Notes under the pieces: model-generated
What the model was told of the DNA's origin: nothing
Database searches by the model: none
Seen by the model: the letters and a program-made list of their open reading frames with translations, nothing else
Shown: piece after piece, positions 8,175 to 62,993 of the stretch
Layout of the letters: each line of letters opens with the position of its first letter
Numbering within the stretch: position 1 is the stretch's first letter
Translations under genes and position numbers: made by a program
IMG/VR virus record: IMGVR_UViG_3300009030_000001
Span: 9,155-73,154 of that record
Length of the DNA stretch: 64,000 bases
Source: a virus
Direction: 5' to 3' (one strand)

Positions 8175-11048
8175 ATGGCCCTTCGGGATTTCGGCGCGAC
8201 TCTCATTCAGTTGGTATTCACCGTTGCCGGCGCCGCGGCTGGTGCTTACTTCGGCAACCCGATACTCGGTGCGAAGGCTGGTGCAGCAGTAGGCGCAGCG
8301 GTCGGCGGCGTGGTGGGATCTCTCGTCGCCAACGAACTGATCTATCCCGATGGGAGAATCGGTGATAGTCCGGCGACGATACTTCCAGATTTGACCAATA
8401 CCGCCGAGGGCGGTCCTGCGATCTATGCGTTCGGCAGCGGTGTCAGGGTGCGTGGTCAGTTGATCTGGATGTCGACAGTCTTCATCGACAACGGGCACCG
8501 AACAGCGCATGTGGCGATAGCCGTAAATCGTCGCCTGACCAATTCCTTGTTCGCGATCTACGCGGACGGCTACAAGATTTTCACCACGATAGGCACGCGG
8601 GTGATCGGCACTGGACAGGTCCAGATTCGTCACTTCTTGCAGACTCCGAACCTCGTATTCACCCGCCTAGATTCTCCAGGGGGGCAGGTTGATCTGACCC
8701 AAATCAAGGTCGGTGGTGGGGAGTTCAAGATCACCCTCAGTGGATTCTCCAAGCCACAGAACAATGCGGCCAAATTCTTGGTCTTGTTTACCGGCCGATT
8801 CAAATCAGGCGGCGGCACATACGTGATGCTGCGGGCTGAGGACATGACCACCTTCCTTCCGACGCCGTCGAACTTTGACGAGGGGATCACCCCGAATGTC
8901 ACGGTTACCGAAAAGATCACGATCGGTGTCAATCGTGATTTCGCGAAGGCGATCACGTTCCATGACGGCACAGCGGGACAGGCACTGGACCCTCTCATGG
9001 TTCAGCATCAAGTCGAGCCGGTCGCGCATGAAGGGCTGTCCTACTACGTCATCGACTCGCTGCGTCTGACGCAATTCGGCAACCGTGTTCCTCTAGACAC
9101 CACACATATACTGGTCGCGGACGATGCTACGTACACGCTGGGCGACGTGATTCGCGACGTGTTCGCGATCGGCGCTGCTCCGGCTCACCCCGACGGTCCA
9201 GTCGTCCCGAATACTGACGGCGTGACTGGCGCCTTGGATCAATTCAGAGGATTCGTCAGCTACGGTAACAATTCGATCGTCGGCAGGATGCAATCGCTGA
9301 TCACCGCCTACAACCTTCTCGCTCAGGTTCGCGACGATACCGTTTACATCTTCACCCCAGACAACGCCCGCATCTCATTCATCAACGAGTTCGAGTTCGG
9401 GATCACATCAGCGGCGACCGGTGCCGGGATCCGATTCTCCCCGGAGCGATCCGACAGCGAACTACCATCCGGCGTCACGTTGCATTTCTCCGATGTGGAC
9501 AAGAACCTGGAGGATGCGGCGGTCGACGAGCACAAGACGAGGAACGAATTTCGCCATGACAACATGGTGAATGTGGACCTTCGCGCCCATTCGCTAACAG
9601 TGTCTGAGGCACGTTCAATCGCACTTCGAATTCTGTGGGAGCCGTCACGACAGCGACAGGCATGGCGTGGGTCATTGCCGGCGAATTTCTACTACCTGCT
9701 CGAAAACGACGCGATCAACACCACGGTGAACGGGGAGAAGGTGAAGCTCCTGATCAAGAAGATTGACCAGGGCGCGATGGGGACGATTGAGTTGGAGGGG
9801 TTCGTGATCACCGATCCCATCACCCTCAGCATCGCTGAGTCATCTACCTTCGAAGACTTCTCGACCGACGATTCAGAGGTCAACGATGGCCGCTCCCAGT
9901 TGACTCTTGCGATCTGCGAACTGCCTGCACTGACGCCGGACGAGATCGTAGAGCCGTCCTATTACCTGCCGGTCGCATCGTACGGCGAGCGTCGGATCGA
10001 GTCGGCGCAGATCCAACAGACCTGTGATTGTGACGGGGTGACATTCGAGAAGATTGCGGATGTAGTTGATGAGGCGGCGATAGGGATCGTCGTCGATGGC
10101 TCAGACTTCCAAGACCGCGCGATACCGAATCAGTTTGATCGAGAGTCGTCGATCGATGTCGTGCTATTTCAGGGCACGCTACGAGCGCATGAAGAGCCGA
10201 TGGTGCTGTGCGGTTCGAATCTAGCCTGCGTCGATGGCGAGGTATTCGCGTTCTCTGGCGTCGAGGATCTTGGGTTCGTCGATGATGAACTCGGTCGAGT
10301 CTACCGGCTGACTACGATGCTGCGGGGCATGATGGACACCGATCCTAGCCACCGGCCCGAGCGTGGCGTTCAATTCGTCATGCTCACGAATCACGCCGCG
10401 TTGAACCCGATCAGAATCCCCTGGGGGTCGATCGGATCCCCACGCACGGTACGAGCCACAACTGGCGGCGATGTTCTCGATGACGAGGTATTCGATGCGG
10501 ACACGTTCACCCCGCTCGCGCACAACCTTCGTCCGTTCGCGGTTGTCAACATCACCGGGTCGATCGATGGCTCGGACAACTGGAACATCTTCTGGGTTCG
10601 ACGCTCGCGTTACCCCGGGTTCCGAGTCGTGTCGCAGTTCAACGATCAAGACGTGGACGCCAGACTGTACCAAGTAGAGATCTTGGATGGCCCGAACGGA
10701 ACGATCAAGCGATCGACGACGGGGGTCACTGAGTCGTTCCAGTATCTGTCCGCTGATCAGGTCACCGACTTTGGTTCCAACCAGACCCGAATCTACGTGC
10801 GGATCAGTCGCATCGGAACCTGGGGCATCGGTAAGCCTGCTGAAGCTACGCTCCCAGGTGACATCGTCTACGGCCGGTCAAATGCTGACGGTGTTGCCAC
10901 TGCGGTAGCCACTGGCAAACTCATCGCAGGCGGAAAGGCGTTGGCTGACGGCGTTGCTACAGCGACGGCGCGAGGCGTCCGAATCATCCAGGGAACTGCT
11001 ACAGCGGCAGGAACATCAACAGCAACCGCAGATGGAAACGTGATCTAG
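8175..11048 (+). CDS. tail tip / host-specificity protein (GTA-like phage tail protein)
   Basis: 957 aa; G..IYAFG..RVRGQLIW, L..FGNRVP, ELPSGV.LHFSD, NLACVDGEVFAF, LRG..DT, W.RRSR motifs. Confidence 0.82.
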   Translation: MALRDFGATLIQLVFTVAGAAAGAYFGNPILGAKAGAAVGAAVGGVVGSLVANELIYPDGRIGDSPATILPDLTNTAEGGPAIYAFGSGVRVRGQLIWMSTVFIDNGHRTAHVAIAVNRRLTNSLFAIYADGYKIFTTIGTRVIGTGQVQIRHFLQTPNLVFTRLDSPGGQVDLTQIKVGGGEFKITLSGFSKPQNNAAKFLVLFTGRFKSGGGTYVMLRAEDMTTFLPTPSNFDEGITPNVTVTEKITIGVNRDFAKAITFHDGTAGQALDPLMVQHQVEPVAHEGLSYYVIDSLRLTQFGNRVPLDTTHILVADDATYTLGDVIRDVFAIGAAPAHPDGPVVPNTDGVTGALDQFRGFVSYGNNSIVGRMQSLITAYNLLAQVRDDTVYIFTPDNARISFINEFEFGITSAATGAGIRFSPERSDSELPSGVTLHFSDVDKNLEDAAVDEHKTRNEFRHDNMVNVDLRAHSLTVSEARSIALRILWEPSRQRQAWRGSLPANFYYLLENDAINTTVNGEKVKLLIKKIDQGAMGTIELEGFVITDPITLSIAESSTFEDFSTDDSEVNDGRSQLTLAICELPALTPDEIVEPSYYLPVASYGERRIESAQIQQTCDCDGVTFEKIADVVDEAAIGIVVDGSDFQDRAIPNQFDRESSIDVVLFQGTLRAHEEPMVLCGSNLACVDGEVFAFSGVEDLGFVDDELGRVYRLTTMLRGMMDTDPSHRPERGVQFVMLTNHAALNPIRIPWGSIGSPRTVRATTGGDVLDDEVFDADTFTPLAHNLRPFAVVNITGSIDGSDNWNIFWVRRSRYPGFRVVSQFNDQDVDARLYQVEILDGPNGTIKRSTTGVTESFQYLSADQVTDFGSNQTRIYVRISRIGTWGIGKPAEATLPGDIVYGRSNADGVATAVATGKLIAGGKALADGVATATARGVRIIQGTATAAGTSTATADGNVI

Positions 11049-19752: not shown

Positions 19753-19985
19753 AGCTCTTCTCCGGCTACTTCAAGACCAGCGACGGCCGCAAGTGGTCGG
19801 TAGCGTTCCGCGCCCATAGCTGGGACGACGCCTTCTCGCTTGCAGACCTGTTCGGGGTCACGGTCGAGGGAACTCTCGTCGCTACGTACGACGCTGACAC
19901 GGGCGAAGAGAAACCGGGCGTTGCTCACTTCGCGGCATGGAACTGCGACGGAGAGCGTTTCTACCAGGAGGTTGAGACCCCATGA
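19749..19985 (+). CDS. hypothetical protein
   Basis: ATGA-coupled on both sides. Confidence 0.5.
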   Translation: MKLFSGYFKTSDGRKWSVAFRAHSWDDAFSLADLFGVTVEGTLVATYDADTGEEKPGVAHFAAWNCDGERFYQEVETP

Positions 19986-20479
19986 AGCTCACCAAGAATC
20001 TCTGGGACGTAGCGAGGGAGGAGATGCCCGAGAAGGTGCAGGATCGGTTTTGGGACAAGGTGCGGAAGCCGAACGCCAACGGCTGTTGGCTGTGGAATGC
20101 CGCAACAGACACGGGCGGCTACGGTCAGTTCTGTTACCCCAGAGACAAGGCCCTCTTGTCTCACCGAGTTGCCTACGAGTTACTGGTAGGACCAATCCCG
20201 GCAGGGCTTGTGATTGACCACTTCTACTGCCAGACCCCGGCCTGTGTGAATCCGTCACACCTTGAGGTGGTGACCCACAGGGCCAACACTCTTCGCGGCA
20301 AATCCGTTCCCGCTGAGAACGCCAGGAAAACCGAGTGCAAGAACGGCCATCCATTCACCGAGAAGAACACACGCATCAGTTCGATCGGAGGGAGGGTTTG
20401 CAGGGAGTGCCGCCGGGCGTACGGCAGGCGCTACTATCAAGAGAACTATTCGGTAGCAGCGAGGGAAGCCACCCAATGA
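19982..20479 (+). CDS. HNH homing endonuclease (HNH_3 type)
   Basis: RFWDKV...CWLW...GYGQF...HRVAY...DH..C....CVNPSHLEVVT...N; C-terminal CKNGH...CREC. Confidence 0.9.
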   Translation: MKLTKNLWDVAREEMPEKVQDRFWDKVRKPNANGCWLWNAATDTGGYGQFCYPRDKALLSHRVAYELLVGPIPAGLVIDHFYCQTPACVNPSHLEVVTHRANTLRGKSVPAENARKTECKNGHPFTEKNTRISSIGGRVCRECRRAYGRRYYQENYSVAAREATQ

Positions 20480-26648: not shown

Positions 26649-26818
26649 AGGCCCTGACCATCCGCGAGGTGCGCGATGCCCTGGAAGACTAGACACCAAC
26701 ACTCTTTGGCGTGGTAGACTGGCCTTCTCCATCGCGGGCAACCGTCGATCGCGGGGGGTGGTTCCAAGCCGCCCTGCCCAGCGGTGGTTTTCTTGGACGC
26801 ATCACTTGGAGGTGCAAC

Positions 26819-27283
26819 GTGAAGACAATCGAAGAACGGTTCTGGGCGAAGGTCGAGAAGAGACCTGACGGATGCTGGGAGTGGACCGGGGGCACAACAG
26901 GGAGCACCGGCTACGGCCAGTTTTGGGTAAAGCATCGGCACCAACTGGCTCACCGATTCTCTTACACGGTGATTCACGGCTTGGAGATCCCTCCAGGGCT
27001 GACCATCGACCACCTGTGTCGGAACCGGCTGTGCGTGAATCCGGCTCACCTAGAGCCCGTGACCAATCGGGTGAACGTCCTGCGAGGTAATGGGCCTGCG
27101 GCCCGGAACGCGAAGAAGACCCACTGCAAACGCGGCCACGAGTTCACGCCAGAAAACACCTATCGACAACGCCGCAAGAGGGGAGTCGTCGCTAGGTTGC
27201 GTCGGACGTGTCGGACGTGCCGGCGCCGCCTCGAACATGAGTATCGGAGGAGGGTGCGATTATCGGCACGGCCGAAGTCGTAG
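26819..27283 (+). CDS. HNH homing endonuclease (HNH_3 type)
   Basis: ERFWAKV..CWEW..GYGQF..AHRFSY..DHLCRNRLCVNPAHLEPVT..N; CKRGH; RBS GGAGG. Confidence 0.92.
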   Translation: MKTIEERFWAKVEKRPDGCWEWTGGTTGSTGYGQFWVKHRHQLAHRFSYTVIHGLEIPPGLTIDHLCRNRLCVNPAHLEPVTNRVNVLRGNGPAARNAKKTHCKRGHEFTPENTYRQRRKRGVVARLRRTCRTCRRRLEHEYRRRVRLSARPKS

Positions 27284-29088: not shown

Positions 29089-29718
29089 ATGGCAGACAAA
29101 GTAGAAAGGCTAGTAATCCCCCGTCCGAATCTCCAAACCATCAAGATTCCGATTCGTGGAACTGCGCCATACGTGCAGCATAAGTTCTCTGCGAAGGTTA
29201 GCCAGGAGATGCTACAAGCGCAGGTGGATGGGGCCAAGTCGAAGAACCGCAAAAAGACAAAGCCGCGCGACGTCGATGCGGACTACGAGAGCGCCATCCA
29301 CTACTCGACGGAGGGGTGGATCGGCATCCCTGCGCCAGCATTCCGTAGCGCGTGCATCCGAGCGTGCAAACTCGTCGGCATCGAGATGACGATGGCTAGA
29401 ATGTCGGTGTTCATCGAGCCCGACGGATTCGATGCTGACGAAGGGACGCCGCTTGTCCGCATCTATGGTAAACCAGAACGGAACGAGTCCCCCGTCCGGA
29501 TCGGACAGGGTACCGTTACCATCGCCATCCGCCCAATGTGGCGAAAGTGGACGGCCAAGGTCAAGGTCACGTTCGATGGCGACCAGTTCTCAGCACAAGA
29601 CGTGCTCAACCTGATGCATCGCGCAGGGCTCCAAGTTGGAGTCGGGGAGGGTCGTCCCTTCTCCAAGAAGAGCGATGGGGTGGGGTGGGGTACCTTCGAA
29701 GTAGATGATACCAAATGA
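29089..29718 (+). CDS. stand-alone RAMP/Cas7-like protein (Vipr-like)
   Basis: N-terminal IRGTAP strand, IPAPAFRS helix motif, C-terminal Gly-rich loop AGLQVGVGEGRP...GWGTFEV; upstream of a GGY-NN array. Confidence 0.72.
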   Translation: MADKVERLVIPRPNLQTIKIPIRGTAPYVQHKFSAKVSQEMLQAQVDGAKSKNRKKTKPRDVDADYESAIHYSTEGWIGIPAPAFRSACIRACKLVGIEMTMARMSVFIEPDGFDADEGTPLVRIYGKPERNESPVRIGQGTVTIAIRPMWRKWTAKVKVTFDGDQFSAQDVLNLMHRAGLQVGVGEGRPFSKKSDGVGWGTFEVDDTK

Positions 29719-30188
29719 TGAACGACGAACAACTGGCAGCCTTGCAGGCTATCTATGACCGCGATGGGAACCTCAAGGCCAGCACTGTGCTGGCCGAGGC
29801 GACTCCGCCGGATGCTCCGTGCCACTCGCTGTTTGAGTGGGATGTGGAGAAGGCGGCACGGGAATTCAACCTCGACATTGCGCGGCAAATATGCCGGACC
29901 GTCGTCATCAGTCATGATGGTTTGGCGGAACGGTTGGTCAACGTCCCATCAATCCGGCGGGAGGGTGAGGAAAGTCAAGAGGGCTACTACCAGTTCCCGG
30001 GTGTGATGGTGCAGGACGAACACGATCGAGCGATGGGTCAGGCGTTGTCGGCGCTGCACGCGGCCCATGAGAATGTCGATGTGCTTGCCAAGGGTCCGAA
30101 GGGTTCACCTAACCTGAGGAAGGCGTTGAAAGGCATCAAGAGGGCTCAGGATCTCCTAGAATCTGAGCGTCAAGGCCCGGCGTCGTGA
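29715..30188 (+). CDS. partner protein of the RAMP-like gene
   Basis: ATGA-coupled; A..PDAPCHSLFEWD..KAA....AR motif; array starts at the base after its stop. Confidence 0.65.
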   Translation: MMNDEQLAALQAIYDRDGNLKASTVLAEATPPDAPCHSLFEWDVEKAAREFNLDIARQICRTVVISHDGLAERLVNVPSIRREGEESQEGYYQFPGVMVQDEHDRAMGQALSALHAAHENVDVLAKGPKGSPNLRKALKGIKRAQDLLESERQGPAS

Positions 30189-30506
30189 GGCTGGGCAAGG
30201 CAGGTACTGCGAGGCACGGCAGGCAATGCGCGGCGTGGCACGGCGAGGCGGGGCAGGGCGTGGCTCGGTCCGGCACGGCACGGCAGGCGGGGCGCGGCGG
30301 GGCCTGGCCCGGCATGGCGAGGCGCGGCACGGCACGGCAGGCGAGGCGGGGCAGGGCGTGGCTCGGTCCGGCACGGCACGGCAGGCGTAGCGCGGTGTGG
30401 ATAGGCAAGGCATGGCGAGGGCGGGCATGGCAAGGCAATGCAGGCATGGCACGGTGTGGCTTGGCAGGGCGCGGTACGGCACGGCTTGGCAAAGCAGGCA
30501 TGGCAT
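30189..30506 (+). repeat. GGY-NN pentamer array, putative guide ncRNA (VIPR-like)
   Basis: About 65 GGC/GGT-type triplets at 5-nt period with variable dinucleotides, punctuated by 4-nt (G/T/A)GCA steps into units. Confidence 0.8.
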
Positions 30507-30759: not shown

Positions 30760-32097
30760 ATGACTGAAGAGACCTTCTCCGACCTGACACTGATCGGGCT
30801 TCGCGTCCGTGATTTCATGCGTGTCAGTCTTGTCGAACTCAAACCGGACGAGTCTGGAACGATCGAACTACGCGGTGCGAATGCTGCTGGCAAGACGAGC
30901 GTGATTTGGGCGATCTGGGCGGCCTTGGGCGGTGGCCGCGTGTCGCCGGATCGACCCATCAAGGAAGGCGCGGAAGAAGCGTCGGTCATGCTCGACTTTG
31001 GTGACATCCTAGTCAAGCGGACCTGGGACGAGACCGGCACCAAGCTCGAAGTGCGACGGTCCAGCGATGGCACCACGATCAAGTCGCCGCAGAAGCTGTT
31101 GGACTCGCTCGTGTCCCAGTTCGTCGACCCGTGCCAGTTCCTCATGCTTCGACCCGAGGATCAGGCCGCGCAGGTTCTCGCCATGACAGGGTTAGCCGAA
31201 CCACTGAGAGAACTGGACGACAAGGAAGAACGGGCGACGGAGGTTCGACGGGATCTTGGTCGAGATATGAAGCGGGCGCAAGGCGCCCACAGAACCGCGG
31301 CGGATGATCTTCCCGCACTCGACAAGGACGCGCCATCCATCTCGGATGCGGCGGTAGCACTGAAGACGGAGACCGATTACTTTTTGCTACACACGTCGGA
31401 GAAGGAGAGTTTGGACTATGCCGTGCGCGACATCGATCGTGTGAAGGGATATATCACGACGCTGACCGAAGAGATCGCAGCGCGGACCACGCAGATTGGC
31501 GAACGCCAAGAGCAGTTGACGCGAACCCAAGGGGCGATTGTCGCGCACACGAAATACCTCGCCGACAATCGCCAACCGGATCTTGACGGTGCGCAGAAGG
31601 CTTTGGACCTTGCAGAGACCCAGGCTGGAGCAGTCGCGGCACACAAGAACGAGAGGGATCTCAACACGGCGTTCTGCGCCGCGAAGAAACTGCACGACGG
31701 CGCCGAACATCGGGTGAAGGAGATTCGGTCGAAGCGCGCAACGATTCTGGAGGGCGCGGAGTTCCCGGTGGCCGCAATGAGCTACGACGCGGACGCGAAG
31801 ACCCTGATGCTCGGAACGGTATCGTTCACGCAGGCGTCCAGCGCGGAACAGTTGAAAGCATCGATTGAGTTAGCCATTGCGGGCAGCCCTGGGATCAAGC
31901 TCCTGTTCGTGCGCGACGCTTCGCTGCTAGATTCGGATTCGCTCACCGTCATTCGAACCATGGCCGCAGAGCGAGGGTACCAAGTCATCCTTGAGATCGT
32001 AGACGAAGACCCGGAAGGCCCAGGCGTGTTCATCGAGGATGGATGCGTACGAGAACAGAGTGAACCAAACAAACCGACACCCAAGGCATATGAGTGA
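30760..32097 (+). CDS. SMC/Rad50-like ABC ATPase with coiled coil
   Basis: Walker A GANAAGKT; long coiled coil; signature SSAEQ; Walker B LFVRDASLLD. Confidence 0.85.
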   Translation: MTEETFSDLTLIGLRVRDFMRVSLVELKPDESGTIELRGANAAGKTSVIWAIWAALGGGRVSPDRPIKEGAEEASVMLDFGDILVKRTWDETGTKLEVRRSSDGTTIKSPQKLLDSLVSQFVDPCQFLMLRPEDQAAQVLAMTGLAEPLRELDDKEERATEVRRDLGRDMKRAQGAHRTAADDLPALDKDAPSISDAAVALKTETDYFLLHTSEKESLDYAVRDIDRVKGYITTLTEEIAARTTQIGERQEQLTRTQGAIVAHTKYLADNRQPDLDGAQKALDLAETQAGAVAAHKNERDLNTAFCAAKKLHDGAEHRVKEIRSKRATILEGAEFPVAAMSYDADAKTLMLGTVSFTQASSAEQLKASIELAIAGSPGIKLLFVRDASLLDSDSLTVIRTMAAERGYQVILEIVDEDPEGPGVFIEDGCVREQSEPNKPTPKAYE

Positions 32098-32869
32098 GCC
32101 AGACAGTCCGATACACATGCTCTCAGAGCGAACCAAGCCCCGCGATACCCACCGAGAATGAGTGAGCCAATCGTTGCGATACTCAGTCACTCCGAACGAG
32201 CCATCCACGTCGACACCCATACCACATGAGCGAACCAACTCCCCCGAAACCCAGAGACGATGAATGAGCCAGACTCTGCGATACCCACAGACGTCGATCG
32301 AACCAGAGACCCAGACACCCAGGCAAGAAGAGTGAGCCATCACGCCCGATACACACCCGTTGAGAGCGAACCACAGCCCTCGATACCCACGCACAGCGAG
32401 TGAACCACGTGAACGAACACCCAAGTGCAACGATTGATCCACACAACCGGCGATCGAGCCAAGGATACTGATGTCCAAATCGTTCGAGCGAGTCAAAGAA
32501 ACAGATACCCACACCATATGAGCGAACCAGCCGACCGGATGCCTAAAACCACAGAGTGAACCATCCAACATGATACCCACCCCCACGGAGTGAGTCAGGA
32601 TCGTTGAAACACAAGGACTCGAAACGAACCACATGCCACGATGCCCAATTCGACAGAGTGAGCCACACCGAGTGACGCCCACTAGGCACGAACGAACCAC
32701 GATGACCGATGCACAGAAAACAAGAGTGAACCAGGGCCACCGATACCCAGATGCGATGAGTGAACCATGAGGGCCGATATCCAAGTCGGGTGAGTGAGCC
32801 AATAGCTGAGATACCCAGACGTCGTGAGCGAACCAGTACGAGCGATACCCAAACAGAACAAGTGAACCA
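32058..32869 (+). repeat. TIGR-like dual-spacer array 1 (23 full 34-nt units, one 20-nt short unit, terminal repeat)
   Basis: GAGYGARCCA-N8-GAYACCCA-N8 at exact 34-nt period (32058, 32092, 32126...); spacers vary between units. Confidence 0.88.
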
Positions 32870-32884
32870 AACAGGATAACAACC

Positions 32885-33997
32885 ATGACCGATACGAGTG
32901 TGCAGACCGCGTTAGACCTGACCCCCGCTGTTCAGCGGATAACGAAGGATCTACGCGAAGCCGTGAAGACCTTGAACGTGCAAGAGGCCCGGTACCTGGT
33001 CGACTACTACTACCAGATGCAGGAGGATCGGAAGCGGTCGGCGAATCAGGAGCGGGCGGTGAAGGACGGCGCTGATACGGAAGGCCCGTCCGGTGCGGTG
33101 GCTTGGCTCGCTGCGCAGGGAAGGTGCATGGAAAGCCGGGTCAGGACGTTCCTGGACATCTACTCCGGCCACCACCCTCTTGGGATCTGGGCCCGATCGA
33201 ACGTGGGAATTGGCCCTGTTATCGCAGCCGGATTGCTCGCGCACATCGACATGGCGCAGGCGCCGACCGCAGGACACATCTGGTCGTTCGCAGGATTGGA
33301 TCCACGGGTGAAGTGGACCGGTGCAACCGAGACGGCGAAGGAACTGGAAGCGTGCCTCGGCGGGCGGCCCGACAAGGTGTCCTACGAGCATCTCGTCATG
33401 GCGTGCGAACACTTCCGGCGCAAGCCAGCCACGATTGAACGCTACGCCAAGCCGCTCAACTGGACGACGTTGGTGAAGGCGCTGAACCGGCGGCCGTGGA
33501 ACACGCCGCTCAAAACTCTGTGCTGGAAGATCGGGGAGAGCTTCTGCAAGGTCTCGGGTAATCCAGACGCCTTCTACGGCAAGCTGTACGCCGAGTACAG
33601 GGTCGAAGAAGACCGGCGGAATATCGCTGGCGAGTACATACAGCAGGCGTATGACAAACTCGAACGCTTCAAGATCGGCAAGGACACCGACGCGCACTTG
33701 TGGTATGCGGGATGCCTTACTTCTGTCAACGCGAAAGACATTCGAAAGGCGGAGTCGAGCAAGCGTATGGGAATGGCGAAGAAACTGGCAGGCGATCCCG
33801 GAAGCGGACAGCCGATGTTGCCACCGGCCCACTTGTTCGCTCGCGCCAAGCGCCGTGTTGTCAAATTATTCCTCAGCCACTATCACCACGTCGGCTACAT
33901 GCTCTCGCACGACGGCGAAGAACCCCCGCGCCCCTGGGCCCTTTGCCAAGGGGGGCATACCCATTTCATCCCGCCGCCCAACCTAGACAAACTGTAG
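32885..33997 (+). CDS. Nop/IS110-C-terminal domain protein without nuclease domain (TasA-like)
   Basis: LVDYYYQMQ..RKR..NQ coiled coil; GIGPVIAAGLL; IWSFAGL; WN..LKTLCW.IGESF; ARAKRR.VKLFLSH; no N-terminal DEDD/RuvC; flanked by arrays. Confidence 0.82.
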   Translation: MTDTSVQTALDLTPAVQRITKDLREAVKTLNVQEARYLVDYYYQMQEDRKRSANQERAVKDGADTEGPSGAVAWLAAQGRCMESRVRTFLDIYSGHHPLGIWARSNVGIGPVIAAGLLAHIDMAQAPTAGHIWSFAGLDPRVKWTGATETAKELEACLGGRPDKVSYEHLVMACEHFRRKPATIERYAKPLNWTTLVKALNRRPWNTPLKTLCWKIGESFCKVSGNPDAFYGKLYAEYRVEEDRRNIAGEYIQQAYDKLERFKIGKDTDAHLWYAGCLTSVNAKDIRKAESSKRMGMAKKLAGDPGSGQPMLPPAHLFARAKRRVVKLFLSHYHHVGYMLSHDGEEPPRPWALCQGGHTHFIPPPNLDKL

Positions 33998-34374
33998 TCA
34001 GAACCCACGACACCCAGGACATCAGAACGAGTCAGTTCGAATGACACACACACGATGAGAACGAGCCATGAAGTAGAATGCACAAAGTTGAGGATCGAGC
34101 CAAGATGAGCGATACCCAAACCCTCTGAGTGAGCCAACCCCTCCGATACTCATCATCTAGGAGCTAGCCACCGTAGGCGATACCCATAACGCAAGATCGA
34201 GCCATGACAGGTAACACCCACAACATTAGATCGAACCACCACTGGTGATACACACTACCTCAGAGTGAGCCATAGGAGTTGATACCCAACATGATCGAAC
34301 GAGCCACTTCTTGAGATGCCCAGAGCCTGAGATCGAGCCAGTCGCCAAGAGACCCATGAGAATCGAGCGAACCA
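33991..34374 (+). repeat. TIGR-like dual-spacer array 2 (11 units plus terminal repeat)
   Basis: Same 10+8+8+8 architecture at 34-nt period (33991, 34025 ... 34365). Confidence 0.88.
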
Positions 34375-34451
34375 CATAACCACATTTGGCACCGGGCAGG
34401 AGTTGACTCTCCTTCTTCCCCTTTTCCCGAACCCTGTCCGGTGCGTTTACC

Positions 34452-34775
34452 ATGACCAACCGCCCAGACCCATCGAGCACCCACATCCGAATCCACATCC
34501 TGTCCATGCTGTCGCCGACTGAACCGAAAGCTGGCGAAGACATCAGGGCCGAAGTTGCATGGGTGCCTTCCGTCGCGGCCTTCCTGAACATGCTTTCTGG
34601 CATGGATGATTGTGACTACGTCGCAACCCACAGAACGCCACGGTCCAGGGATGGACACGGCACAACCGTAAACGAATACACCATCACAGCGCGCGGTCGC
34701 CAAGTTCTAGAGGAGGCTGTCGCCTTCTACGCGGACTTGTCGAAACCAAACGCAAAGGAGACTGAGACGAGATGA
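34452..34775 (+). CDS. PadR-like winged-helix protein
   Basis: C-terminal YTITARGRQVL motif. Confidence 0.55.
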   Translation: MTNRPDPSSTHIRIHILSMLSPTEPKAGEDIRAEVAWVPSVAAFLNMLSGMDDCDYVATHRTPRSRDGHGTTVNEYTITARGRQVLEEAVAFYADLSKPNAKETETR

Positions 34776-37746: not shown

Positions 37747-37983
37747 ATGAGAGAAGACCAAGCACAACGCTACATCGTCGAACTTGACGATGGCGACGGT
37801 CTGTGGTTTCCGATTCACTGCATTGGAGACCACCCTCATGGACTGACGCAGGAACAGGCCAAGGTCCGCGCCCATGGCTACGCTGAAGGCCAAGCTACTG
37901 CGCGCATTGCTCCGGTCATAGGATTCAGGCGAGACAGCGGCGGACGCACCATCGAACCGATCTCGGGAAACGATGTCGTCTGA
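37747..37983 (+). CDS. hypothetical protein
   Basis: ORF overlapping the methyltransferase start. Confidence 0.4.
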   Translation: MREDQAQRYIVELDDGDGLWFPIHCIGDHPHGLTQEQAKVRAHGYAEGQATARIAPVIGFRRDSGGRTIEPISGNDVV

Positions 37984-39208
37984 CAACACGCACATCGTCG
38001 AACAGCTACGGTCGCTGGCGCGGCCCGTGGACGAGTTCACGCTCGATCCCACCAACGCCAGGATCCACGACGAAGACAACCTGGAAGTGATCAGGACTTC
38101 GTTGAAGAAGTACGGCCAGCGGCAGCCGATCGTCGTCCAGAAGGACGGCATGATCGTTCGGGCCGGGAACGCGCGCCTGATCGTCGCCAGGAAGCTGGGG
38201 TGGAAGACCATCGCCGCGGTGGTGATCGACGAGCCTGACCTTGCCGCAACTGCTTACGGCATAATCGATAATCGTAGCAGCGAAATGGCCGAGTGGAGTG
38301 ACGAGACCCTAGCGAAGCTGCTGGCGTCGATTCAGTCCGAGAATCCGGAGATGCTAGAAGCCACCGGATTCGACGAATCGGAGTTGGAAGAATTGCTAGC
38401 CGAGATCGCAGGCGAACCGGACGTGATCCAAGATGACGTCCCGGAACCGCCAGCGGAACCGGTCGCAAAGCTCGGGCAGTTGTGGGCGTTGGGTGATCAT
38501 CGTCTCTTATGTGGTGACTCGACGAAGACGGATGACGTGGAGCGTCTGATGGACGGCGAGAAGGCTCGGATGGTATTCACCGACCCGCCGTACGCGCTAT
38601 TCGGCAACTCGACTGGGGTTGCTGGGATAGTGGACGACAAGATGACGCGTCCGTTCTTCTTGGAGGTATTCAGGCAGAGCCGAGCCTTCACCAAGTTGTT
38701 CGCCCATATCTACGTCTGCTGTGATTGGCACTCGGCGTTTTCGTTGCAAGCAATGGCCCGAGAAGCCGGGCTGACGGAAAAGAACCTTTGCATCTGGGAC
38801 AAGGGGGACGGTGGCATTGGCGCTATGTATCAGCAGTGTTACGAAATGGTTTGGTTTTTCGCTAATTCCCCCATAGCCGCCGGGGCGACCGCCAAGAAAG
38901 CCGTAGGGGAACGAACAATCAACGGCAAGCCGAACATCTGGCGATTTCCCCGCGAGTTGGCGGACAGATCGCACAATGCGCAGAAACCGGTGGAGATGGT
39001 TGCTGGTGCGGTGAGTAACAGCAGCGACCCAAAGGATATAGTACTGGATTTGTTCTTAGGCGGTGGAACCACTCTGATTGCCGCCGAACAACTTGATCGC
39101 ACTTGTTACGCAATGGATCTAGAGCCAAAGTATTGCGACGTCACCATTGCCAGATGGGAGAAGCTGACCGGCCAGAAGGCAGAACTCTTGGAGGAATCCC
39201 ATGCCTAA
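37973..39208 (+). CDS. ParB-N domain fused to N6-A/N4-C DNA methyltransferase (beta class)
   Basis: NARIH...PIVV...AGNARL; HRLLCGDS; TDPPY; H..QKPV; VLDLFLGGGTT; DLEPKYCDV. Confidence 0.92.
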   Translation: MSSDNTHIVEQLRSLARPVDEFTLDPTNARIHDEDNLEVIRTSLKKYGQRQPIVVQKDGMIVRAGNARLIVARKLGWKTIAAVVIDEPDLAATAYGIIDNRSSEMAEWSDETLAKLLASIQSENPEMLEATGFDESELEELLAEIAGEPDVIQDDVPEPPAEPVAKLGQLWALGDHRLLCGDSTKTDDVERLMDGEKARMVFTDPPYALFGNSTGVAGIVDDKMTRPFFLEVFRQSRAFTKLFAHIYVCCDWHSAFSLQAMAREAGLTEKNLCIWDKGDGGIGAMYQQCYEMVWFFANSPIAAGATAKKAVGERTINGKPNIWRFPRELADRSHNAQKPVEMVAGAVSNSSDPKDIVLDLFLGGGTTLIAAEQLDRTCYAMDLEPKYCDVTIARWEKLTGQKAELLEESHA

Positions 39209-61856: not shown

Positions 61857-62993
61857 ATGGCAAACGTACTCACCGACATCATGCCGAAGATCCTCGCCCG
61901 AGGGCTTCTGCAACTTCGCGAAACGGCGATCATGCCGCGGCTGGTCAACGGCGACTATTCGACCGAGGCAAAGGAATTCGGCGACACCATCGACGTCATC
62001 ATTCCCGCGTCGACCACGTCGAAGCCGGTCGTTCCATCGAACATTCCTCCGGTCCCAGACAGCAAGACCCCGACGAAGGTTCCGATCCCGCTGGACCGCT
62101 GGGAGCACTCCGATTTCCACATGACCGACAAGGACATGAAGGAAGTCGATCGGAACGAACACTTCTTGCCGGGTCAGGCAGGTGAAGCGATCCGAGCTTT
62201 GGCGAACGAGGTCAACCTGTCCGTCTTGGAGGAGTACCGCGGCATCTATAGCCTCGTGGGAACTCCCGGAACCGTACCGTTCGATGGTGGCACCCAAGAG
62301 GCCACGCAGGCTCGGAAGATTCTGAACCAGCAACTCTGTCCGAAGCAAATGCGACGTGGTGTTCTCGATCACGACGCCGACGCTTCCGCGTTGGAGCAGG
62401 CCGCGTTCCAGGACGCGAGCAAGTCGTTCGATCCTCGCGTCATCACCGAAGGCGAGATCGGCCGGAAGTTCGGCATGGATTGGTTCGCGGAGGACAATGT
62501 TCTCACGCACGTCGCCGGTGGCGGATCTGGATATCTCGTCAACAACGCCGCGACGGCTATCGGCGACGCGACGTTGATCGTCGATACCGGAACAGGAACG
62601 CTTACCCTGGGCGACATCTTCACCATCGCGGGCGACACGCAGCAGTACACCGTGACCGCCGCCCAGTCGGGTGGCGCAGCTACTTGGCCGATCGCCCCCA
62701 CGCTAAGGGTCGCAGTGGCCGACGACGCGGTGATCACCATTGTCAACGCTTCCGATCACGTCGTGAATCTGGCGTTCCACAAGGATGCCTTCGCGCTCGC
62801 CATGCGGTCGTTGACTTCCGACATGGAGTTGGTCACGTCCGGTGGCCGCGTGTTGTCGATGCAGGATCCGGTCACTGGCCTCATCCTTCGCCTCGAAGTC
62901 GATCGTCAGTACAAGCAGGTCGCTTGGGACTTCGACATCCTCTGGGGCGTCAAGCTGGTCCGGCCCGAATACGCCGTCCGCATCGCCGGATAG
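61857..62993 (+). CDS. major capsid protein (P22 coat-like family)
   Basis: MANVLT...L.....MPRLVN.DY...GDTIDV.IP; G.IGR.FG.D; NLAFHKDAFALAMR.L; DILWGVK.VRPE.AVR. Confidence 0.9.
   Translation: MANVLTDIMPKILARGLLQLRETAIMPRLVNGDYSTEAKEFGDTIDVIIPASTTSKPVVPSNIPPVPDSKTPTKVPIPLDRWEHSDFHMTDKDMKEVDRNEHFLPGQAGEAIRALANEVNLSVLEEYRGIYSLVGTPGTVPFDGGTQEATQARKILNQQLCPKQMRRGVLDHDADASALEQAAFQDASKSFDPRVITEGEIGRKFGMDWFAEDNVLTHVAGGGSGYLVNNAATAIGDATLIVDTGTGTLTLGDIFTIAGDTQQYTVTAAQSGGAATWPIAPTLRVAVADDAVITIVNASDHVVNLAFHKDAFALAMRSLTSDMELVTSGGRVLSMQDPVTGLILRLEVDRQYKQVAWDFDILWGVKLVRPEYAVRIAG

Follow-up and report, generated by a model that had tools for sequence, protein, structure and literature searches.

The 64,000-nucleotide (nt) stretch analyzed here (the window), positions 9,155 to 73,154 of the IMG/VR virus record IMGVR_UViG_3300009030_000001, very probably contains a TIGR-TasA system of the dual-repeat type in the genome of a tailed phage. 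The locus (32058–34374, in window coordinates) consists of a gene, tasA, for a 370-residue Nop-domain protein and two flanking arrays of 34-nt units, 23 upstream and 11 downstream, both on the + strand. The 2025 description of TIGR-Tas systems covered about 20,000 tas loci (Faure 2025, Science, PMC12045711); that paper reports arrays upstream and/or downstream of tas, repeats of 8–12 nt, TasA as the commonest type, and a phage setting. Flanking arrays, nuclease-less TasA, and repressor activity have already been published, and the locus adds nothing categorically new. It is modestly unusual in its 34-nt unit, in a Trp at the position of a catalytic Tyr, and in a 56-residue helical insertion at the wedge position of the protein.

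Array Architecture

Each unit comprises a 10-nt edge repeat (GAGYGARCCA), an 8-nt spacer A, an 8-nt loop repeat (GAYACCCA), and an 8-nt spacer B. A search of the window for the edge and loop consensus separated by 8 nt, allowing up to three mismatches, returned 33 matches, compared with a mean of 0.39 and a maximum of 3 in 100 dinucleotide-preserving shuffles of the window; all 33 are on the + strand and confined to 32058–32885 and 34025–34356. When the units are placed in register, per-column information alternates between conserved and variable stretches of 10, 8, 8, and 8 columns, the variable ones carrying 0.0–0.3 bit. In this profile, edge and loop repeats alike start with GA and end with CCA (shared box D and box C motifs), and in the relatives L007 and L074 the edge repeat ends with CCG and the loop repeat does likewise. 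Some repeats are degenerate, with up to three mismatches to the consensus.

A first-pass annotation made from the letters alone had described arrays on both sides of the 370-codon gene, and the in-register layout returns the same counts (23 and 11 units), consensus, and coordinates, as well as the repeats beginning with GA and ending with CA or CCA. The repertoire that it called large is so, with 34 units compared with a typical 5–15. The strict 34-nt period that it reported holds throughout the units and is broken at a single 20-nt partial unit.

This partial unit (32432–32451, +) consists of an edge-like repeat, GATTGATCCA, plus 10 nt and has no loop repeat, and it shifts the register between the two blocks of the upstream array. 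Block 1 (32058–32431, +) holds 11 units, the first of which overlaps the final 40 nt of an upstream open reading frame (ORF) of 445 residues (30760–32097), and block 2 (32452–32859, +) holds 12. A terminal edge repeat, AAGTGAACCA (32860–32869, +), opens a decayed 24th unit (AACAGGAT followed by AACAACCA; 32860–32885, +) with three mismatches to the unit pattern. The decayed unit contains the ribosome site (AGGA) of tasA (32885–33997, +), whose ATG begins at the last base of the unit, 32885. The downstream array (33991–34364, +) holds 11 units; the TAG stop of tasA falls within its first edge repeat, which is degenerate, and the array closes with an in-register terminal edge repeat, GAGCGAACCA (34365–34374, +).

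The base counts of the spacers are A 67, C 94, G 65, and T 46 for spacer A, and A 90, C 78, G 55, and T 49 for spacer B. Both are C/A-rich and U-poor on the RNA strand (17–18% T), with a spacer GC content of 54% compared with 59% for the phage. Provided that spacers A and B read a single site on its two strands, a skew common to both would point to a constraint acting on the RNA and not on the target.

TasA as a Solo Nop-Domain Protein

Based on its predicted structure, the protein is a solo-Nop TasA without a nuclease domain. The AlphaFold model, computed from a 35-sequence alignment, has a predicted local distance difference test score (pLDDT) of 88.5 and a predicted template modeling score (pTM) of 0.83, with low confidence only at residues 1–12 and 351–358. 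Its ten best Foldseek matches are all TasH or TasR complexes (probability 1.0, expect value (E) 3e-5 to 1e-3), with IS621 and ISCro4 as runners-up at E of about 0.1. Structure alignment with VIA-align gave Z 17.1–18.0 to TasH (model residues 28–370 against chain residues 64–309), Z 16.2 to TasR (chain residues 112–322), and Z 11.6–11.9 to IS621 and ISCro4, limited to chain residues 125–322; beyond these are coiled-coil look-alikes alone, at Z 8 or less. By sequence, solved structures are matched at E 5.3e-9 (TasR, 9mty) and E 1.1e-4 (TasH). A coiled-coil hairpin is modeled at residues 32–96 (encoded on the + strand), and only 28 residues precede the coiled coil.

The structure alignments begin at TasH residue 64–66 and TasR residue 112, and nothing in TasA corresponds to the nuclease domains of TasH, TasR, or IS621. 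Neither Pfam nor structure alignment revealed an HNH, RuvC, or DEDD domain. The first-pass annotation had proposed a TasA-like Nop protein lacking RuvC and HNH and had pointed to profile and structure comparison as the way to check it; the comparison agrees with it, as the Nop fold is present, no DEDD domain was found, and the fold matches TasH and TasR above IS621.

The only Pfam family found in TasA is PF02371 ("Transposase_20"; residues 107–149, E 9e-7), and the PHROGs match, phrog_4285 (E 5e-36), is annotated as "transposase". Together with the likeness to the IS621 fold (Z 11.9), these labels would suit an IS110-type RNA-guided transposase with a bridge RNA. That identity is extremely improbable, because the DEDD/RuvC domain is missing, the likeness to IS621 covers no more than its residues 125–319, and a 34-unit array is present where IS110 has one bridge RNA. 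The ORF of the TasA protein is intact and retains all 39 invariant columns of the family. A homodimer prediction scored 0.39, compared with a mark of 0.42.

Covariation between Edge Repeats

The edge repeat varies at position 4 (T or C) and position 7 (A or G). Position 7 of one unit pairs with position 4 of the following unit in 34 of 34 cases (14 A-T, 19 G-C, and 1 G-T), compared with a shuffle mean of 26.2, and 34 was reached in none of 2000 shuffles. Inside one edge repeat the same two positions can pair in only 25 of 37 cases, and 10 show A-C combinations. The inter-edge pairing recurs in relatives that vary at these positions: 30/31 in L001, 29/30 in L002, 22/22 in L013, 17/17 in L024, and 24/24 in L136. 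These counts are given by locus and no pooled total is used, because in some loci loop repeats matched the search pattern too, as seen from A/A classes.

According to Faure 2025 (PMC12045711), a processed tigRNA (the guide RNA) takes its two ends from separate edge repeats, and these ends pair and covary. By analogy with these published relatives, from which processing itself is taken, the perfect inter-edge pairing is a signature of processed tigRNAs. It points to + as the transcribed strand, to the unit boundaries as laid out above, and to a cut between edge positions 4 and 7.

The same result bears on the possibility that no functional guide RNAs arise from the locus, which would then be a relic in decay or a repeat acting at the DNA level, such as iterons or protein-binding sites. 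The broken unit at 32432–32451 and the repeats with up to three mismatches would be in keeping with decay. However, the covariation is perfect, the ORF retains the processing-loop residue His358 (see below) as well as the invariant columns, and a sibling phage has the same architecture although its guides have been replaced, so we consider a relic or DNA-level repeat very unlikely.

Processing Loop and Nop-Domain Insertions

SpTasH is reported to cut its own precursor with Y289 and H296 in a C-terminal loop (NAR 2026, PMC13421893). In the HMMER alignment these residues correspond to W351 (33935–33937, +) and H358 (33956–33958, +) in the C-terminal processing loop of TasA, with a spacing of 7 residues in both proteins; the Y/H dyad is therefore incomplete, with the His present and the Tyr position occupied by Trp. 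The low confidence of the model at residues 351–358 fits a flexible processing loop. Among 75 aligned rows (74 relatives and the window's own protein), the His is conserved in all 75, while the Tyr position is Y in 62 and F or W in 13 (10 F and 3 W, the latter being the window, L001, and L050). The Trp is invariant in the 12-sequence closest clade, for which a metagenome scan gave, among the matches listed, nothing nearer than 47% identity. L050 combines the Trp with a 36-nt array and L003–L005 combine a Tyr with 34-nt arrays, indicating that the Trp and the 34-nt unit are not strictly linked.

Two insertions in the Nop domain, which the first-pass annotation had noted as apparent, are real but fall at known variable sites that are filled in various combinations in relatives. 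The first, 56 residues with four confident helices in the AlphaFold model (residues 145–200; 33317–33484, +), is at the wedge position, between blocks aligned to TasR residues 162–211 and 228–256; in the numbering of the Xu 2026 preprint (10.64898/2026.09.09.750476) the TasR wedge is G210–K230. An insert of at least 51 residues occurs at this site in 14 of the 75 rows. The second, a variable segment delimited by the alignment of relatives (residues 276–312; 33710–33820, +), measures at least 32 residues in 15 of 75 rows. Its position makes it the probable equivalent of the "insertion 2" that Xu 2026 reports to be longer in dual-repeat Tas. Both inserts occur together in four rows: the window, L001, L006, and L031.

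Unit Length among Relatives

We sampled 192 related loci (191 besides the window) from three overlapping collections; as at least 16 locus pairs are 100% identical, the period counts are not independent. An array period was detectable by autocorrelation in 155 of the 192 loci and was 36 nt in 138, 34 nt in 5, 35 nt in 7, 37 nt in 4, and 38 nt in 1. Segmentation by column information was applied to 103 non-identical arrays of at least 10 units. It resolved the 36-nt unit as 8+8 spacers with 10+10 repeats in 48 arrays, the 35-nt unit as 8+8 spacers with 9+10 repeats in 4, and the 34-nt unit as 8+8 spacers with 8+10 repeats in 3 (the window, L001, and L003); the other 48 split noisily. In the cleanly segmented arrays with periods other than 36 nt, the spacers stay at 8 nt and the loop repeat alone changes length. 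The 34-nt unit thus results from an 8-nt loop repeat replacing one of 10 nt, not from shortened spacers, and within this sample unit length ranges from 34 to 38 nt, by way of the loop repeat where resolved. The first-pass annotation was right about the 8+8 layout of the guide but not in calling it shorter, as 8-nt spacers are the commonest clean layout (48 of 103 arrays) and the SpTIGR guide is likewise reported to have 16 variable nt in total.

Periods of 34, 35, and 37 nt also occur in other TasA lineages (L003–L005, L033, L119, L127, L128, and L139). The Xu 2026 preprint describes dual-repeat tigRNAs as "uniform" and "fixed" at 36 nt and, in its introduction, as "typically 36nt". We found no 34-nt tigRNA in the literature, the two main papers included, the supplements of which may already contain arrays of this period or variants with F or W at the Tyr position.

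The edge repeat GAGCGAGCCA is widespread across the family, and the loop repeat differs between the 34-nt clades, being GAYACCCA in the window and L001 and GAACATCA in L003–L005. A quick tree built from 75 Tas proteins places the 34-nt loci in two starred clades (the window with L001, and L003–L005), for which two changes are needed; five loci gave no ORF by the motif rule and L038 was dropped because the wrong ORF had been taken. Taken alone, the starred branches of this tree are also compatible with a single origin of the 34-nt unit.

Guide Turnover

Comparison with the sibling phage shows that guides are replaced far faster than the flanking DNA diverges. The sibling locus, L001, comes from a 41-kb virus record (G001) rated 56% complete; its TasA is 90% identical to that of the window and its flanking DNA is 80–91% identical. 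Five of the 34 guides in the window have a counterpart in L001 (at most 3 differences in 16 nt), and composition-matched shuffles gave none under 4 differences. The remaining 29 guides differ from L001 at 6–10 positions, like random pairs. A divergence of 9–20% predicts a difference of 1.4–3.2 nt per guide, and the probability of 6 or more is 0.002–0.08. The shared guides are colinear in the two phages, with varying numbers of unrelated units between them. One two-unit block (34131–34201) aligns with L001 4519–4589, starting at edge position 5 and ending at edge position 7.

Other sibling pairs were compared by whole units (at most 3 mismatches per unit), a threshold that loses power under about 90% identity. 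L015 and L016, which are 97.8% identical over their longest alignment, share 17 of 20 units; L066 and L070 (97.6%) share 5 of 10, L018 and L024 (92.9%) 1 of 25, and L062 and L064 (92.6%) none of 8.

Fast replacement bears on how TIGR arrays gain spacers. As the shared block ends inside edge repeats, near the inferred cut, new guides may enter as unit-length modules, by recombination at the inferred processing site or even from processed RNA; if true, such unit-wise entry would be a first handle on TIGR spacer acquisition. Since the dyad Tyr is lost and W351 is clade-invariant, maturation in this clade may use a different chemistry or a host RNase. The combined picture, a clade with a minimal 34-nt tigRNA, an 8-nt loop repeat, and a dyad without Tyr, matured by other chemistry or a host RNase and receiving its guides as unit-length modules, is speculative and, we think, rather unlikely to hold as a whole.

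Proposed Function and Target Searches

The most likely role of TasA is that of its published relatives, namely RNA-guided DNA binding or repression. Faure 2025 (PMC12045711) reports that TasA binds unit-length RNAs, and the Xu 2026 preprint describes TasA ribonucleoproteins as RNA-guided DNA binders and reversible transcription repressors. In the mechanism that we propose, transcription, processing, dimer formation, DNA binding, and repression are all taken from such relatives. Both arrays and tasA would be transcribed together from the + strand, and the precursor would be cut within each edge repeat, between positions 4 and 7, releasing a 34-nt tigRNA of the form 5'-(A)RCCA, spacer A, GAYACCCA, spacer B, GAGY(G)-3'. 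A TasA dimer would hold one tigRNA through the GA (box D) and CCA (box C) of its edge and loop repeats, while its two 8-nt spacers would each base-pair with one of two neighboring 8-bp target halves, on opposite strands. As TasA lacks a nuclease, its binding would block transcription or replication, either of host DNA or of a competing mobile element.

Several results weigh against this account. Target scans joined spacer A to the reverse complement of spacer B in both orders, with gaps of 0–2 nt, on both strands of the 73-kb phage genome with the arrays masked, and found no self-target at 0–1 mismatch; the counts at 2 mismatches were 3 and 5, compared with 5.6 and 5.6 for mismatched-pair controls. 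The 41-kb sibling contains no exact target and one 1-mismatch target (0.27 expected), and 936 kb of related loci contain no exact target and two 1-mismatch targets (3.8 expected). Cross-targeting between the siblings, in both directions, was likewise not above controls. The first-pass annotation had suggested this search, and it yielded no excess in the phage, the sibling, or the related loci; we therefore infer the natural function. According to the Xu 2026 preprint, chance matches swamp wide scans for 16-nt targets.

Further points on the same side concern maturation and expression. With a Trp at the catalytic Tyr position, self-processing by TasA cannot be taken for granted. A promoter and terminator scan, whose counts did not exceed those of shuffles, detected neither a sigma-70-like promoter on the + strand nor a canonical terminator. 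The terminator scan also passed over a hairpin after the downstream array (34389–34444, +; about 15 bp with a large loop, -26.4 kcal/mol, z -2.65), which is equalled in stability by 1 of 200 shuffles and lies in a region that aligns with L001 at 83%. This hairpin is possibly the 3' end of the transcript, though no T run follows it. A last point against the account is that the proven repressor (MbTasA) and the solved complex (PlTasA) are stem-loop types or distant relatives outside this subfamily. An Rfam scan of 31800–34600, at E up to 1, matched no family. Among listed sequencing runs, one DNA run, possibly the source, contains the locus, and no RNA run does.

The guides could also address RNA, in box C/D small ribonucleoprotein-like or antisense regulation of phage or host transcripts. 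The Nop fold and box C/D-like motifs are common to small nucleolar ribonucleoproteins (Faure 2025, PMC12045711), and the U-poor spacers could reflect an RNA-level constraint. However, neither fibrillarin nor L7Ae was found among 92 window proteins searched with PHROGs and 17 neighbors searched with Pfam (a search of the window, which starts 9 kb into the phage genome), no self-complementary targets occur in the phage genome, and TasR is reported as inactive on RNA substrates (Faure 2025). RNA targeting is thus highly improbable here compared with the binding of DNA.

Family Size and Phage Setting

Judged by sequence searches, the TIGR-Tas family to which the locus belongs has thousands of members. 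At least 5537 of 8000 scored candidates in a 90% cluster database reach E 1e-3, the best non-self match being 75% identical, as do 2126 representatives at 50% identity. A relative is encoded in 461 of 524 candidate stretches from IMG/VR and in at least 489 of 594 from JGI metagenomes, and GTDB genomes contain 32 related loci; a tblastn search with TasA against 50,697 GenBank phage records gave no match at E 1e-5. Table S1 of Faure 2025 (PMC12045711) includes proteins of the same subfamily.

The phage genome, which makes up one virus record of 73,154 bases, carries the same 123 bp without mismatch as a direct repeat at its two ends and is therefore probably complete; the window ends (64000) where the record does. 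By its gene content the carrier is a tailed phage: PHROGs matches among 92 window ORFs include portal, major head, scaffold, tape measure, and tail proteins and both terminase subunits, as well as RecE/RecT, a DnaC-like loader, RusA, two HNH endonucleases, and a ParB_N-methyltransferase. The major head protein (61857–62990) is at most 43.5% identical to that of any GenBank phage; its nearest relatives are two uncultured Caudoviricetes records and MAR10-like Vibrio siphoviruses, and two Salicola phage records are among its 84 matches. A tRNA scan of the window found none.

Some of these genes could supply an activity that TasA lacks. If TasA were a targeting subunit only, a separate effector (a nuclease, a methyltransferase, or an AAA_23 ATPase) would be recruited to the site specified by the guide. 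Candidates in the phage are the two HNH endonucleases, an N6/N4 DNA methyltransferase fused to a ParB_N domain, and an AAA_23-like ATPase encoded immediately upstream of the TIGR locus, and Faure 2025 (PMC12045711) reports occasional TasA-ParB operons. However, 8 ORFs lie between tas and the ParB-methyltransferase gene, which is located 4 kb downstream (37973–39208) and is neither operonic nor in the TasParB arrangement of that paper. None of the candidate effector genes lies beside tas in the 191 other loci, apart from the 90%-identical sibling L001 and one weak ParB-methyltransferase match in L190. More generally, no conserved neighbor adjoins tas in these loci and shared neighbors occur in L001 alone, indicating that the module is self-contained. 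A recruited effector is therefore unlikely, and we favor a TasA that acts by binding.

The two HNH genes (19982–20476 and 26711–27280; phrog_826, E 4e-51 and 1e-52) are paralogues in the replication/recombination region and are probably homing endonucleases. Between the ORFs at 29715–30188 and 30760–32097 is an intergenic tract of about 310 nt (30195–30505) made of degenerate GGC-containing pentamers (GGCAC, GGCAG, GGCGA, and similar). Tandem Repeats Finder assigns it periods of 5, 10, 49, and 98, and the period is not a multiple of 3. L001 has a similar 49-nt periodic tract in the same place (315–802).

Comparison with Known Systems

CRISPR-Cas, which combines cas genes with repeats of about 23–40 nt and single spacers, was considered and rejected: the repeats are 8 and 10 nt, the 8-nt spacers are paired, and no Cas family was found among the scanned neighbors. 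With IS110/IS621 recombinases the locus shares PF02371 and a Nop-like RNA-binding domain (Z 11.6–11.9), whereas it has no DEDD domain, single bridge RNA, or sign of mobility.

TaTasR (PDB 9MTY) shares the Nop core and coiled coil with TasA (Z 16.2, root-mean-square deviation 2.4 over 193 residues, 25% identity). It differs in its N-terminal RuvC, its 9-nt spacers, and its 21-residue wedge, where TasA has about 65 residues between the flanking blocks; box D is UG in TasR arrays and GA here. The best structural match is SpTIGR-TasH of Salicola phage CGphi29 (PDB 9W03, 9W04, 21KL; PMC13421893), at Z 17–18 over 223–237 residues. This system is also phage-borne, is reported with the same number of variable nt, and has a C-terminal loop in which His296 aligns with His358. 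SpTasH differs in having an N-terminal HNH (residues 1–64, unmatched in TasA), 36-nt tigRNAs, and Tyr289 in place of Trp351, and the two proteins are about 20% identical.

The functional model adopted here is that of MbTasA, CsTasR, and PateTasR, which Xu 2026 describes as nuclease-free or nuclease-dead RNA-guided DNA binders and repressors. CsTasR and PateTasR are described there as stem-loop systems without a C-terminal processing loop, whereas this locus is of the dual-repeat type and keeps the loop.

FpTasA of Flavonifractor plautii resembles the locus in its solo Nop protein, edge/loop arrays on both sides, CCA box C, inter-edge covariation, and phage setting. FpTIGR has a 36-nt unit with 18 variable nt, compared with 34 nt and 8+8 here, and its table row in Faure 2025 gives the FpTasA C-terminus as P-Y...G-H, in contrast to the Trp at the dyad Tyr of TasA. 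The present locus is useful in that it comes from a complete phage genome and not a fragment, and in that its 34 guides place it among the larger repertoires.

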